Positions 1,340 to 8,503 of a stretch of DNA of 8,503 nt are shown here, one piece after another. Positions within the stretch are counted from its first letter, which is position 1. Each line of letters opens with the position of its first letter. Source of the stretch: a virus. Lineage: Monodnaviria > Loebvirae > Hofneiviricota > Faserviricetes > Tubulavirales > Inoviridae. A program made the translations under genes and the position numbers. Under the pieces are notes generated by a model. It saw only the letters and a list, made by a program, of their open reading frames with translations. It was not told where the DNA came from and ran no database searches. The DNA is taken from IMG/VR virus record IMGVR_UViG_2698536505_000016. One strand, given 5' to 3'.

Positions 1340-1377
1340 ACAATAAAGAACGTGCAGTGTAGGTAATACTGCACGTT
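1340..1377 (-). terminator. Hairpin plus T-rich tract between the regulator gene and the membrane-protein gene; terminator or attenuator
   Basis: Perfect 8-bp inverted repeat CGTGCAGT (1351-1358) / ACTGCACG (1368-1375) with 9-nt loop; followed on the minus strand by TTCTTTATTG. Confidence 0.4.
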
Positions 1378-1394
1378 TGTACCATTCGTGGTAC

Positions 1395-1577
1395 TTAATC
1401 CTTTTGTTTGGCAGACATGAGATCTTCTGCTGCATCTTTAGAGTAGTTATCAATCAGATAACCTAAAATCTCTGTCCATGTAATTGTTTTTCCTAGTTTT
1501 ACACTGGCATTTATAGCCAGTCGTTCTAGTTTCATTTTTCTTTCTTCCGTCACGTTATAAGTCGTGCGCTTTGCCAT
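1395..1577 (-). CDS. Putative small DNA-binding regulator, 60 aa, ribbon-helix-helix-like (candidate phage repressor)
   Basis: ATG at 1577; N-terminal short beta-strand-like segment (RTTYNVT) followed by two predicted helices, the pattern of Arc/MetJ/CopG regulators; transcribed divergently from gII. Confidence 0.45.
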   Translation of the reverse strand: MAKRTTYNVTEERKMKLERLAINASVKLGKTITWTEILGYLIDNYSKDAAEDLMSAKQKD

Positions 1578-1746
1578 TTTTTACGCTCGTTCAATGCAAT
1601 ATTTGAAGTGAGTATACATGCTCGTGAACTCATACCATCCAAGCCTCTTGAACTCACTAGCTCACTGGTGTAATGTTAAAACACTAATGAACTACTGAAC
1701 TCATGTGTTAGTAAGTCGTCATTTTTGCAATTTTGAGGATTTATTC
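1578..1746. promoter_or_regulatory. Divergent control region between the regulator gene and gII; contains direct repeats (candidate operators or iterons) and candidate promoters
   Basis: Three 13-nt direct repeats, CTCGTGAACTCAT (1621-1633), CTCTTGAACTCAC (1645-1657), CTACTGAACTCAT (1692-1704), plus partial TGAACTAC (1688-1695); plus-strand TTGAAC (1648-1653), 17-nt spacer, TAATGT (1671-1676); minus-strand TATACT -10-like hexamer (complement of 1611-1616). Confidence 0.4.
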
Positions 1747-2799
1747 GTGATCGATTGGCTTACCGGGATTTTCCCTTGCACACACAAACCGCTTCCGGCG
1801 GGGAGTGTTGTCAGCGTTGATGCTGACGGTGCAATTGAGTGGGAAACCGTTAAGCGACTGACTGTTCGCGGTTCGCATGAAGCAACGATGAAAGTACGAT
1901 CGATAGGATCTAATGGCGAAGGTAAAGCGACACATTTGTACATTGATGGTAATCCTTCCAAGTTTCTGCAGGGGCATTCTGTTGTTGGGTCGGATGATAT
2001 ACAAGGGCTCATGTTGACGGTCTATGCCAGGATTTTATCCTTATTGAATATTCCTCATGATTTAGCGTCTTATAAAGCCGTTATGGCAGGTCAGTATAAA
2101 ATTTCACGTGTTGACATTAATTACATGTATTCATTATCTACGCTGGAAAATGTCAGATCATGGCTTTATGCCGCCGAATTTAAAGCTAAAACACGCCATG
2201 GTCGCGCATGTGGGAAAGGCGGTACAGTTTATTTAGGTAAAAACTCCCGTCGATGGAGTCTGAAATTTTATTCAAAATATGATGAACACGTTTCTGGTAA
2301 AAAAGGGCACCAGATAGCCGAAGAGTTTGTACGAGCCGGGTTACTGGACTGGACGAAAGATAAATTACGTATTGAATTAACATTAAGAACAACTGAGCTT
2401 ATTGATTTAAATTTAACGCTTGGCGCTAACTGGAATATGAAAACACCACGTCAATTATTCTCTGAATATGTAGGGAGAATAGAAATGAATCAGAATGCTA
2501 TTTTAAGTGATGAAAAAATAACGAAACTGCCAAGAAAAATACAGTCAACTTATTTACTTTGGAAACAAGGGGCTAACATGAAAGAAATGTTACCTCATAA
2601 CACTTTTTATCGCCATAGAAGAGAATTGCTTTCGTTCGGTATCGATATTAATTTCTATTGTGATTCACCAGACTCTAATAACGTTGTTCCGCTAATAAGA
2701 ACGCTGGAAGCCAAGCCAGCGGAAATCCCCTTATGGATTTATGAGAAAGGTTTTATTTTCGATTACAACCGTATTTCGCACGCCAGTAGCTGGCATTAA
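1747..2799 (+). CDS. gII: Replication initiation protein pII (rolling-circle nickase), about 350 aa
   Basis: GTG start at 1747 preceded by GAGGA (1735-1739); product then begins MIDWLTGIFP, like M13 pII (MIDMLVLRLPF); internal motifs GNPSKFLQGHSVVG and NNVVPL resemble M13 pII. The ORF track start at 1705 is also GTG, with no Shine-Dalgarno. Confidence 0.85.
   Translation: MIDWLTGIFPCTHKPLPAGSVVSVDADGAIEWETVKRLTVRGSHEATMKVRSIGSNGEGKATHLYIDGNPSKFLQGHSVVGSDDIQGLMLTVYARILSLLNIPHDLASYKAVMAGQYKISRVDINYMYSLSTLENVRSWLYAAEFKAKTRHGRACGKGGTVYLGKNSRRWSLKFYSKYDEHVSGKKGHQIAEEFVRAGLLDWTKDKLRIELTLRTTELIDLNLTLGANWNMKTPRQLFSEYVGRIEMNQNAILSDEKITKLPRKIQSTYLLWKQGANMKEMLPHNTFYRHRRELLSFGIDINFYCDSPDSNNVVPLIRTLEAKPAEIPLWIYEKGFIFDYNRISHASSWH
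2485..2799 (+). CDS. gX: Candidate gene X product: in-frame internal start within gII giving its C-terminal 104 aa
   Basis: ATG at 2485 preceded by AGGGAG (2472-2477) at 7-nt spacing; Ff phages make pX from an internal start in gII of similar size (111 aa in M13). Confidence 0.4.
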   Translation: MNQNAILSDEKITKLPRKIQSTYLLWKQGANMKEMLPHNTFYRHRRELLSFGIDINFYCDSPDSNNVVPLIRTLEAKPAEIPLWIYEKGFIFDYNRISHASSWH

Positions 2800-3620: not shown

Positions 3621-4931
3621 ATGAGAAGGAAAATATTAATTCTTTCCGCTGTCCTCATTTCTCCTTTTTCACATGCTGAGTCATGGGAAAGCATTACTAA
3701 ATCCACTTATCAAAGTTCTGCCTACGCTGAAAGTAAGCAAATAACCAATCAGGATGGCTCTAAGATAACGGTTTACTATATTGATGCTGCTATGCAGGCC
3801 TCCGCTTGTCAGGGTGCTAAATCCAGTGCTCAGAGTGTATTTACTCGGATTAAACCAACTTATGAGGGTATCTGGCCTGATTCTGAATTCCGTCTTGTTT
3901 TTACTGGCGATTGTACTTACAGCGATTCACCAGGGCAGAAGGATAAATATTGGTCTTTAACGGCTTATATTGTTGGTAATATTCAGCGTTCTGTTCCTGA
4001 TGAAAAACCTACTGACCCGACACCAGAAGAAATTTGTGAAGCGAAGCCGCCAGAAGAAGGTGTATTTAATAATGTTGATTCATATGATGGTGGTCGCTAT
4101 ATCTACTATAACGGCTGTGAATATGAGGCTACTGGTGTCATTGTTTGTCAGGGTGATGGTACTGTTTGCGCTGCAACATGGAAGCCTACAGGTGCTGTAG
4201 CTGACCCCTCTGATAAACCCTCACCCCCCCAAAATGGTGGTGGTGAGTCCGGCGGTGGTGAGTCCAGCGGTGGTGAGTCCGGTGGTGGTGAGTCCGGTGG
4301 TGGTGAGTCCGGTGGTGGTGAGTCCGGCGGTGGTGAGTCCGGTGGTGGTGAGTCCGGCGGTGGTGAGTCCGGTGGCGGTAGTTCTGGCGGTGGCTCTAGT
4401 GGTTCCAGTCTTTCTAAAGGTGATATTCAGTCTGCGATCGAAGGTGCTTCACCCAAAATAGCCAGCGATATTCATGATAAATTAACGGAGAAAGACACTT
4501 CATCAGATGATAAAAAAAATGCCGATGAACAAACCAGGAATAATATAAATCGTCTTGACGATTCCATTAACAATCTTACGCGGGGGGCTGGCCGTTTTGC
4601 TGACCCTTCAGGTGGTGATTCTCGTTATGGAAAGGGCGACTCTGAATTAGATGGCGCTTCTACTTTAGCTGATTCTGAATTGGGAATTGAAAAGGATTCT
4701 CACGGTGCTTTATGGGAAGCATTTTTAAATAAAGGTGCTATGCTGCCTAATTTACCCAATGGTAACGGCTGCTCTGATTTTATTATTTTTCCCGGAGAGA
4801 TTTATCAGATTGATATTGGTTGCGATAAATTACTGACTATTAAAGATGTTCTTTCATGGGTTTTTTATTGCCTTACGTTCTGGTATGTCTTTACTTCTTT
4901 AACTTCATTGCTTCGCAAAGGGGGTGAGTGA
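3621..4931 (+). CDS. gIII: Adsorption/minor coat protein pIII, 436 aa: signal peptide, Cys-containing N-terminal domains, (GGGES)n linker, C-terminal membrane anchor
   Basis: ATG at 3621 after the terminator (track start 3477 overlaps gVIII); C-terminus ...[36 protein letters not shown] resembles the M13 pIII anchor; glycine-rich linker typical of pIII. Confidence 0.85.
4236..4400 (+). repeat. Tandem 15-bp repeat array inside gIII, about 9 near-perfect and 2 degenerate units, encoding (GGGES)n
   Basis: GG(T/C)GGTGGTGAGTCC repeated head-to-tail from 4236 to 4370, in frame with gIII, then two degenerate units to 4400. Confidence 0.9.
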
Positions 4932-7640: not shown

Positions 7641-7682
7641 TGGATAGCGGGTAGGTGCGTGAGCCCTGCTCGCTATCCATCA
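7638..7682 (+). other. Long hairpin starting at the gIV stop codon; candidate packaging signal or origin-associated structure
   Basis: Perfect 12-bp inverted repeat TGATGGATAGCG (7638-7649) / CGCTATCCATCA (7671-7682), extendable to about 18 bp with two G-T wobbles, 9-nt loop; no T-run follows. Ff packaging signal is a hairpin just after gIV. Confidence 0.45.
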
Positions 7683-7709
7683 AATGGACATTATTGATTG
7701 GGGTAACTA

Positions 7710-8018
7710 ATGGATTCTTATGGGATTTTATCTGCTCTGGCAGAACGAACGATTACAGCGGAAGAAGCAAAAACAATGACACTTGCAGCCAGAAGTTCTT
7801 CGGCTCAGGTAAATGAAGCATCACTTGCTCTGTTACTGATTGATAATACTCTGGATGCGATCAAAGCAGCTGCCAGTGAAGGGAAAGGATACACTTTACT
7901 TCCTTCTTATGAGATTTCTGTAAAAGCCATTGATTTAGCAGAAGAATTTTTAAGGAAACAATGCGGCTATGTTATTGATAACCAGAATGGCGTAAGGACG
8001 GTCTATTGGTTTATATGA
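7710..8018 (+). CDS. Hypothetical protein, 102 aa, predicted mostly helical, no recognised motif
   Basis: ATG at 7710 with a weak G-rich Shine-Dalgarno; lies between gIV and the att region where Ff phages have only non-coding sequence. Confidence 0.5.
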   Translation: MDSYGILSALAERTITAEEAKTMTLAARSSSAQVNEASLALLLIDNTLDAIKAAASEGKGYTLLPSYEISVKAIDLAEEFLRKQCGYVIDNQNGVRTVYWFI

Positions 8019-8135: not shown

Positions 8136-8369
8136 ATGCAATTTTTCACATCCAGCGATACTGTAATGTTATGTGCGAAGACCTGCGATCGCTGTGGTCG
8201 CCATGCGAAGACGGTGGTAGATGACATTGAGTTCAATGAGTTTCTGTCTGTTAATCACTTAGCTGGATACGGTTCAATTTTTGGTGACAGTAATCGCTTA
8301 AAACTGGATTTATGCCAACATTGCCTGAAAGACGTCCTGGGCCAGTGGATTACGGTCTGTGACCAATGA
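8136..8369 (+). CDS. Hypothetical small cysteine-rich protein, 77 aa, putative zinc-binding
   Basis: Strong GAGGAG Shine-Dalgarno 5 nt upstream of ATG at 8136; CxxC pairs at residues 17/20 and 61/64; followed by the att hairpin. Confidence 0.55.
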   Translation: MQFFTSSDTVMLCAKTCDRCGRHAKTVVDDIEFNEFLSVNHLAGYGSIFGDSNRLKLDLCQHCLKDVLGQWITVCDQ

Positions 8370-8407
8370 CGGCACCGGTAACGCCAGTTCCCGCCATCCT
8401 TACCATT

Positions 8408-8440
8408 GGTGCGCATAATGTACGACTCGTTATGTTGAAA
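8408..8440 (+). other. dif-like XerC/XerD recombination site, second copy
   Basis: Same sequence as 4-36. Confidence 0.55.
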
Positions 8441-8479
8441 AGGCCGCTGCGAAAATCGAATCCCGCAGCGGCCTCTTTA
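8441..8479 (+). terminator. Same hairpin, second copy, downstream of the 8136-8369 ORF; candidate plus-strand terminator
   Basis: Identical stem-loop followed by TCTTT on the plus strand; located about 70 nt after the stop at 8369. Confidence 0.35.
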
Positions 8480-8503
8480 GCATAACGTCATTGTGCGAAC
8501 CAA

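Follow-up and report, generated by a model that had tools for sequence, protein, structure and literature searches.

A candidate ribbon-helix-helix immunity module beside gene II of a CUS-1/Ypf-phi-type filamentous phage

In the filamentous phage CTXphi, a small repressor gene (rstR) lies divergent from the initiator gene, with its operators in the spacer (ig-2) between the two, and repressor and spacer together form an allele-specific cassette between conserved flanks, with heteroimmunity between alleles. The canonical RstR proteins (ET and classical; gene lengths 339 and 336 bp) are helix-turn-helix (HTH) proteins of the XRE type of about 112 amino acids, and the CTX rstA promoter is co-regulated by LexA. 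A comparable arrangement is found in IMG/VR record IMGVR_UViG_2698536505_000016, an inovirus sequence of 8,503 nucleotides that is referred to here as the window. In this phage a gene for a 60-amino-acid protein with a predicted ribbon-helix-helix (RHH) fold (1395-1577, minus strand, ATG start) is divergent from gII, the gene for the rolling-circle replication initiator (1747-2799, plus strand; Pfam Phage_CRI 4.7e-71, G2P_X_C 2.3e-29), and a control region of 169 bp (1578-1746) that carries three repeats separates them. We consider it likely, on comparative sequence grounds, that the repeats are operators of the RHH protein, a proposed repressor, and that the RHH gene and the spacer form a swappable immunity module that controls gII. 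Fold, purifying selection, synteny, site conservation and the finding that the sites are inherited along with the regulator, not along with Rep or origin, were computed; DNA binding, promoter positions, repression and immunity are what we infer.

Prophages of the CUS-1/Ypf-phi group occupy dif in extraintestinal pathogenic E. coli, Salmonella, Klebsiella and Yersinia pestis, and affect fitness during infection. We know of no experimental demonstration of how replication is controlled in this group. Its members are filamentous phages that integrate at dif, and the Ypf-phi gene YPO2273 has been described as 'homologous to RstR', with a role that 'awaits experimental demonstration' (PMC4266046). 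Gene content and terminal sequences identify the window phage as a member of the same group, a type that, like CTXphi, integrates at dif via host Xer, and its RHH gene occupies the same position upstream of the gII homologue as YPO2273 and the CUS-1 regulator. E. coli UTI89 (L016), which we take to be an O18:K1:H7 strain like the host of CUS-1, has a 148-amino-acid XRE-HTH regulator at the RHH position; because of this we infer that the published Ypf-phi/CUS-1 regulator is probably of a heteroimmune HTH type and not RHH. As for the CTX alleles, allele-specific repression of the Rep promoter and superinfection immunity have been reported, including for the short allele rstR-6, which in lux assays represses its cognate ig-2 promoter and does so specifically (PMC11509585).

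The divergent gene and its protein family

The original prediction, made from the sequence alone, proposed that a 60-residue minus-strand protein with a strand-helix-helix pattern, divergent from gII across 169 bp, might be part of a lysogeny switch. The open reading frame (ORF) and the gap are as it described them, and PGAP calls the same ORF in E. coli UM146, whose prophage is 99.4% identical to the window. In Salmonella, E. coli, Klebsiella and other Enterobacterales the exact 60-residue protein is present on at least 1000 contigs, always labelled hypothetical. It is under strong purifying selection, with a dN/dS of 0.03-0.04 against the Brenneria and Scandinavium relatives; compared with relatives L020 and L023, saturation is reached at synonymous sites (27 of about 34.5 differ) and there are just 5-9 nonsynonymous changes.

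AlphaFold2, given an alignment of 48 sequences, produced a model (pLDDT 94.1) with an extended segment at residues 1-10 and helices at 11-28 and 34-59, in agreement with the strand-helix-helix fold of the RHH superfamily (about 45 residues); in this monomer model the strand is unpaired, as expected of an RHH monomer lacking its partner strand. The ribbon, K3 to T10 (KRTTYNVT), has a basic opening and polar R, T and N at positions 2, 4 and 6 of K3-R4-T5-T6-Y7-N8-V9-T10, which is the rule given for such ribbons (eight residues, basic opening, polar side chains at 2, 4 and 6; PMC3413123). Residues M1, K3, R4, T6, Y7, N8, V9 and T10 are invariant in close relatives. Fold matches include Mnt and RHH antitoxins, and hhalign of the family profile against ParG gave a probability of 71% and an E-value of 3.7e-5 over the ribbon and both helices. 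The predicted structure, the fold matches and the ParG alignment thus agree with the pattern first read from the sequence, and we regard the RHH fold, as modelled, as solid.

Scans of the protein against Pfam, NCBIfam and PADLOC gave no match, and further ParG signals were weak (E 0.22 in the PDB profile search; a best E of 0.019 for PF09274, in 7 of the 48 family members). PHROG 2503, a family of unknown function, matches at 3.6e-34, and an exhaustive HMMER search retrieved 65 representatives at 50% clustering, most of them 60-90 residues long. The short CTX allele rstR-6 (192 bp) begins MKKKYTSLRV, as derived from its primer, and this primer agrees with the first bases of a family member's gene at 29 of 32 nt; judged from these few residues, rstR-6 appears to belong to the RHH family.

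Two other roles known for such proteins were considered and rejected. A type II antitoxin would be accompanied by a toxin gene, and no conserved one lies directly downstream in the phage loci, where the genes that follow vary by lineage; a gene for a 140-amino-acid membrane protein in this neighbourhood is common to the XRE-type phages, and the origin hairpin sits between it and the RHH gene. Neither is there a conserved partner gene in the phage loci for a partition adaptor. Outside these loci, a 40%-identical RHH relative (ribbon KRNTYNIT) was observed directly upstream of a ParA/MipZ-like ATPase gene (L029, 1801-2773), on a type of contig that does not look like an inovirus, with TGAGTT and TGAAC motifs upstream. 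This context indicates that the family is not confined to filamentous phages, and it may include true ParG-like partition or regulator proteins.

Repeats and promoter-like elements in the control region

The three repeat copies reported by the original prediction are present: CTMNTGAACTCAY occurs exactly at 1621-1633 (O1), 1645-1657 (O2) and 1692-1704 (O3), always on the plus strand. The whole window contains these three against 0.10 expected by chance, none of 200 shuffles reached three, and a repeat search recovers the same family, its members 24 and 47 bp apart. They had been described as direct repeats, which is right as far as three same-strand copies go but incomplete, the core being a near-palindrome (TGA-AC-TCA). 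This core, TGAACTCA, lies at 1625-1632 in O1, 1649-1656 in O2 and 1696-1703 in O3, and its near-palindromic form would suit one two-fold-symmetric RHH dimer per site. The bare 8-mer has one further copy in the window (8228-8235, minus strand). O3 is an imperfect palindrome, TGAACTCATGTGTT, preceded by ACTA atga ACTA ctga (1683-1698) in an 8-bp register, and the full palindrome TGAACTCATGAGTT(CA) is seen in L023, L025 and L027. This third copy does not overlap the alternative GTG at 1705, as had been thought; it ends at 1704 and abuts that codon. The start preferred at the outset for gII, GTG 1747, is also the better one in our analysis, since PGAP chooses it, the Phage_CRI match runs from residue 1 and a Shine-Dalgarno sequence read as GAGGA (1733-1737, plus strand) stands 9 nt before it. 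Other repeats, namely the direct repeat D2 (1558-1580 and 1712-1734, 78% identity) and the inverted repeats I1-I4, are weak two-copy matches.

In an alignment of eight sequences (A3), mean column identity is 0.94 in the core 8-mers and 0.67 in the remaining spacer (Mann-Whitney p 3e-7), and this conservation is seen despite the saturated synonymous sites of the adjoining RHH gene. Within O2, TTGAACTCA is invariant in 8 of 8 aligned relatives; O1 is inverted to TGAGTTCA at the same position in L023.

The sites lie over two promoter-like elements. The putative gII promoter (1648-1676, plus strand) consists of a -35 TTGAAC (1648-1653), which O2 overlaps, a 17-nt spacer and a -10 TAATGT (1671-1676); the O3 core would fall at about +14 to +21 of the gII transcript, whose start is predicted near 1683. 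On the minus strand, TATACT at 1611-1616 is the candidate -10 of the RHH gene, and O1, the proposed autoregulatory operator, is placed in the promoter spacer just upstream of it; the leftward transcript is predicted to begin near 1604. In alignment A3, T1671 and T1676 of the gII -10 are invariant, and 7 of 8 sequences retain A1672. Positions 1616, 1615, 1613 and 1611 of the leftward -10 (-12, -11, -9 and -7) are likewise invariant, and relatives carry TATAAT or TAGAAT there. In both elements the key positions -12, -11 and -7 are therefore invariant or nearly so across the eight relatives.

We propose that an RHH dimer would contact the near-palindromic 8-mers through its N-terminal beta-ribbon (KRTTYNVT), inserted in the major groove. 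Bound at O1 it would occupy the spacer of its own leftward promoter, at O2 the gII -35, and at O3 the DNA just downstream of the gII transcription start, and cooperative spreading of dimers, in the manner of ParG or MetJ, could be supported by degenerate boxes that lie between O1 and O2 in an 8-bp register. Occlusion of both promoters would repress gII and the RHH gene itself, and a lower supply of the gII product would reduce both replicative-form replication and transcription of the downstream phage operon. A lysogen would then become immune to incoming phages with the same module, and the RHH gene and spacer, flanked by the origin core (1349-1394) and gII, would constitute a portable immunity cassette. 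The boxes in question are six degenerate nCTC boxes with 4-bp spacers that span O1 to O2 (1620-1663, plus strand: GCTC gtga ACTC atac CATC caag CCTC ttga ACTC acta GCTC). They score 19 of 24, against a mean of 11.8 and a maximum of 16 in shuffles (0 of 2000 reached it), with period 8 alone standing out, and the register is kept in the closest relatives and fades in more distant ones; as a post hoc find that is partly implied by the 24-bp distance between O1 and O2, it is used as a lead only and is not relied on.

Several observations weigh against the assignment of the repeats as RHH operators. The leftward promoter has no convincing -35, the proposed hexamers match the consensus weakly (4/6 and 3/6), and a strict consensus sigma-70 scan of 1250-1850 found no promoter, giving just a hairpin internal to the RHH ORF (1503-1521) that we disregarded. 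The invariance of O2 could be explained by the role of the -35 hexamer alone, and distances of 24 and 47 bp, equal to 2.3 and 4.5 helical turns, put the three sites off one helix face. Those relatives that carry TGAACTCA share descent of the whole module, so that the conservation is not fully independent evidence. On the side of the protein, the curated RHH families (CopG, Arc, ParG) are unmatched at their thresholds, and what places rstR-6 in the family is solely its 10-residue N-terminus, taken from a primer. Finally, RovA binds the promoter region of the gII homologue in Y. pestis, which means that host factors act here too.

The same promoter layout bears on the sign of regulation. The RHH protein might be mainly an activator or a dual regulator of gII, with O1 (at about -55) recruiting RNA polymerase, and so act as a governor of replication instead of a repressor for the maintenance of lysogeny. 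Homologues in the productively replicating, non-integrating phages IKe, PEar4 and If1, in which a full shut-off of gII would be lethal, speak for this, as do the weak consensus match of the gII promoter and the lack of a visible induction route such as a LexA box. We nevertheless consider it unlikely, since repressors classically bind where O2 (over the -35) and O3 (downstream of the start) lie, and CTX rstR alleles, the short rstR-6 among them, repress their promoters (PMC11509585). Moreover, the Erwinia phages PEar1, PEar2 and PEar6 gave no match to the ORF and are yet described as viable isolates (PMC7697814), which fits a dispensable negative regulator.

Exchange of the regulator and the position of the origin

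In the phage relatives that were fetched with their replication module, the RHH gene is divergent from that module, If1 (where an insertion sequence (IS) element intervenes) being the exception, and the spacer is usually 115-170 bp long. A scan of genomes yielded just four close relatives, and the more diverse loci were drawn from phage records and individual contigs. Divergent loci include VAI1 ('RstR-like'), pre-CTX and a CTX-phi isolate (annotated rstR), Dulem viruses 52/53, Inovirus D_HF5_61 from saliva, Vibrio cyclitrophicus phages and enterobacterial prophages. An RstB-like gene separates the RHH gene from Rep in L027, and the more distant L028 and L029 (the latter with the ParA-like neighbour) present other contexts. 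The spacers of the Vibrio and saliva phages each have a short repeated motif of their own.

Two sets of relatives amount to a natural swap. In L020-L025 the RHH protein is 86% (L020-L022), 80% (L023/L024) or about 60% (L025, Providencia) identical to that of the window; Rep is of the If1 type, with at most 33% identity to the window pII over short stretches only, and the origin has an If1-type hairpin, GTTCGGGGTtctgtgacACCCGAAC, with its own palindrome. Their spacers nevertheless keep TGAACTCA or the near-identical inverse TGAGTTCA at offsets of 24 and 45-47 bp. Conversely, L016 (UTI89), L017 and L018 share the gII type of the window (about 80% nucleotide identity) and the hairpin AACGTGCAGTGTwGGTAATACTGCACGTT, and the segment between hairpin and gII has been exchanged for XRE-HTH regulators of 148 or 150 amino acids with unrelated spacers, in which not one TGAAC or GTTCA was found. 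Sites that are kept beside a foreign Rep and origin and lost with XRE regulators indicate that the repeats travel with the RHH gene and not with Rep or origin. At least three regulator types (RHH, 148-residue XRE and 150-residue XRE) thus occur between the same origin hairpin and gII type, and the RHH cassette is joined to at least two Rep/origin types.

The motif also changes with the ribbon. A 56%-identical relative from an unrelated metagenome, with the ribbon RRTTYNID, carries TGAACTCATGAGTT as well, whereas relatives with the ribbons GDTTVRIN or KYTSLRVK have motifs of the GCATGC/TATGCG type or the CATACATG type. As for the regulators that occupy the RHH slot in related E. coli prophages, which are of at least three further types, the XRE-HTH genes lie at 1597-2043 in L016 (148 amino acids) and 1586-2038 in L017 (150 amino acids). 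A 62-amino-acid regulator in L019 (1494-1682) starts MPTKHINDV and resembles the primer-derived N-terminus of RstR-calc, MATKHIKDST. The spacers of L016, L017 and L019 each have their own inverted repeats.

The plus-strand origin can be placed on the other side of the RHH gene. Just beyond its stop codon is a perfect 10-bp hairpin, AACGTGCAGTgtaggtaatACTGCACGTT (1349-1377, plus strand), the proposed nick hairpin, followed by a 16-bp palindrome, GTACCAttcgTGGTAC (1379-1394, plus strand), the proposed pII-binding repeat of the origin core; the region folds as DNA at -16 kcal/mol (z -5.2). Both elements align with the M13 origin (nick hairpin GAGTCCACgttctttaataGTGGACTC, then TTGTTCCaaacTGGAACAA) and with the annotated 'viral-strand origin' of IKe, including TAATA at the loop-stem junction, and the palindrome corresponds to that of f1, which is also TTGTTCCaaacTGGAACAA and also follows the nick hairpin. 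As the f1 nick falls after TTTAAT (TTTAAT^A), pII is predicted by analogy to nick between T1367 and A1368, and the hairpin may also terminate the leftward RHH transcript. It is conserved with this gII type whatever regulator is present. The palindrome becomes GTCTCAttcCTGAGAC in the relatives with an approximately 80%-identical gII, both arms changing symmetrically (GTACCA..TGGTAC to GTCTCA..TGAGAC), and is replaced by TACCGTnn...nnACGGTA at the loci with an If1-type Rep. The segment 1349-1394 hence combines an Ff/IKe-type nick hairpin and palindrome with variation according to Rep type, and the repeats at 1621-1704 show no co-inheritance with Rep. Origin core and repeats are, as far as the sequences tell, separate elements on either side of the RHH gene, at a distance of about 225 bp.

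This arrangement leaves very little chance to a reading of the repeats as pII-binding iterons or as a replication enhancer (the counterpart of Ff domain B), with the small protein unrelated to them. It has in its favour that the repeats sit upstream of gII and that the origin and enhancer of Ff phages are located directly upstream of that gene. However, the repeats persist beside If1-type Rep and hairpins and vanish from phages with this gII/origin type, the Ff/IKe-like hairpin and palindrome are found at 1349-1394, across the RHH gene, and it is the palindrome and not the repeats that changes with Rep type. The original prediction had allowed for repressor operators, for iterons of the plus-strand origin, or for both; the second is not borne out, and the first agrees with a conservation above that of the spacer, with the location over two promoter-like elements and with co-inheritance with the regulator.

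A host protein would be another candidate for the sites, for instance a regulator of the RovA/SlyA type or a nucleoid protein, the RHH protein being an antitoxin or a partition adaptor. In Y. pestis, RovA does bind the promoter region of YPO2274, which is the gII homologue there (PMC4266046), the 40%-identical relative upstream of a ParA-like ATPase would fit an adaptor, and RHH antitoxins are among the fold matches. We find this quite improbable all the same, as the sites track one regulator type and are absent from XRE-carrying sister phages in the same hosts, different ribbon sequences within the family go with different motifs, and the phage loci have no conserved toxin or ParA partner, the 140-residue neighbour being common to XRE-type phages.

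Operators of an RHH regulator thus remain the reading that we favour, and the family extends to phages for which no integration is known, namely IKe, PEar4 and If1. IKe has an unannotated ORF of 65 amino acids between the annotated viral-strand origin and gII (NC_002014.1, 6604-6798, minus strand; 802-999 in L006), absent from the annotation of both X02139 and NC_002014, that hhalign places in the RHH family (probability 94.9%, E 4.7e-8). A copy with 70.8% identity, also unannotated, is present in Erwinia phage PEar4, while a search of PEar1, PEar2 and PEar6 for the IKe ORF gave no match. In If1 (NC_001954.1; 1492-1680 in L001 and 1041-2330 in L026) a 58%-identical RHH ORF lies unannotated in the 'major intergenic region'. 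An apparent IS200/IS605-type element that includes ORF348 separates this ORF from the gII control region. The If1 gII itself apparently starts MFFDWLTIEQ (at about 2318 in L026), upstream of the annotated ORF320, and its spacer has repeats of its own (TAAACACTTATGCkCTC twice, plus others).

A search for LexA boxes (CTGT-N8-ACAG, up to 2 mismatches) found none in 1578-1746 and no excess in the window, and neither an SOS box nor another induction route is visible in the control region. Since non-integrating phages carry homologues and a LexA box is lacking, 'lysogeny switch' was an overstatement: an RHH regulator with its proposed operators is well supported by comparison, the part that concerns lysogeny goes further than the data. 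A safer description is a governor of replication-gene expression that in dif-integrating prophages would also confer superinfection immunity. More tentatively, and with somewhat less than even confidence, we suggest that PHROG 2503 as a whole is an unnamed ParG-like RHH family, widespread and perhaps the ancestral governor of the rolling-circle initiator in inoviruses, that includes the IKe and If1 proteins and short CTX rstR alleles and in which ribbon and operator motif co-vary.

The window phage and known systems

The assignment of the window to the CUS-1/Ypf-phi group is based on its genes and its ends. It has the full Ff/IKe-like complement, with gII, gV, gVII/gIX, gVIII, gIII, gVI, gI (Zot-like) and gIV (secretin) in this order on the plus strand from 1747 onward, gIII carrying GGGES repeats, and four genes on the minus strand at the left end. 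The UM146 prophage, which adjoins hipBA, matches the window over its full length, and its right junction is a canonical dif. Bases 1-103 and 8401-8503 are identical, which indicates that the window is one unit of 8403 nt plus overlap, from a circular assembly or a tandem prophage. In this terminal repeat a GC-rich hairpin (arms 24-47 and 60-83) is flanked by a pair of dif-like sites in inverted orientation (GGTGCGCATAATGTACGACTCGTTATGT, and TTGGTTCGCACAATGACGTTATGCTAAA on the opposite strand), a layout like that of the single-stranded attP of the CTX type.

Between attL and the origin are three minus-strand cargo genes of unknown function (101-1306), whose products are a 159-residue protein (phrog_6723), a 91-residue CxxC zinc-ribbon protein of the ECs_2282 family (NF047912, 3.6e-18) and the apparently hydrophobic 140-residue protein (phrog_4174). 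The gene for the last is retained in heteroimmune relatives, and the outer cargo genes differ among phages. Two small plus-strand ORFs of unknown function follow gIV, one of 102 amino acids (7710-8018, phrog_4115) and one of 77 with CxxC pairs (8136-8369, phrog_5435); by position they probably correspond to the attR-adjacent YPO2280a/YPO2281 of Ypf-phi/CUS-1. Directly after the gIV stop there is an imperfect long hairpin, GATGGATAGCGGGTAGGTGCGTGAGCCCTGCTCGCTATCCATC (7641-7690), which is similar to a stem-loop of IKe that carries the annotation of terminator and morphogenetic signal (GGCTGCCGGGTAGGTGCGCTAGCCCTGCCCG) and is likely the packaging signal. In gIII, about nine tandem 15-nt repeats that code for GGGES (4230-4385) form a glycine-rich linker, and variation in their number may lie behind the two-piece UM146 match and the length differences among related prophages. 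An Rfam scan of the window detected no RNA family.

If our interpretation of the control region is correct, it would provide a concrete operator map for control of the CUS-1/Ypf-phi type. Different cassettes would bring heteroimmunity and so explain the tandem stacking of related prophages at dif. It would also give a function to a family that is labelled hypothetical on at least 1000 contigs and add a gene to the maps of IKe and If1; should the suggestion for PHROG 2503 hold, this would be a gene overlooked for decades in the intergenic region of two textbook 'non-temperate' phages. If ribbon and motif do covary, immunity specificity might be read, and perhaps re-engineered, from eight residues. 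No new kind of mechanism is revealed.

Among known systems, the window locus shares with the RstR class a regulator gene divergent from the initiator gene and a repressor and spacer that vary together as a cassette, and some CTX and pre-CTX records annotate a homologue of the 60-residue protein as rstR. In contrast to the canonical RstR, the window regulator is a 60-residue protein with an RHH instead of an XRE-HTH fold; in contrast to CTXphi, the region has no LexA box, Rep is Ff/IKe-like and an Ff-like origin adjoins the repressor gene. CopG (RepA) of plasmid pMV158, in the class of RHH proteins of about 45-60 amino acids, represses transcription of a rolling-circle initiator gene and so sets copy number, is co-transcribed with repB and binds a 13-bp pseudosymmetric element. 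The window gene differs in being divergent and in having three separated sites, and there is no match at the sequence level. Arc and Mnt of P22 immI are likewise RHH phage repressors on divergent promoters, but they belong to a tailed phage and to antirepressor control rather than to a replication gene, with no detectable sequence relationship. ParG of TP228, with its operator OF, resembles the window protein in its RHH fold, in its ribbon (KRVNVNFD versus KRTTYNVT) and in helix 2, though with a similarity below the Pfam threshold for the sequence family. It binds cooperatively to ACTC boxes set 4 bp apart, whether these are direct or inverted, and represses its own transcription (PMC3413123). 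The window sites similarly hold ACTC cores and degenerate 4-bp boxes with 4-bp spacers; unlike in the ParG system, the spacers are not AT-rich, and the protein lacks the long flexible N-terminal tail, the ParF partner and the centromere role. On the sequence evidence, the locus would therefore be a known kind of system, an immunity cassette of the rstR/ig-2 type, in which the new element is an unnamed ParG-like RHH family in the role of regulator.

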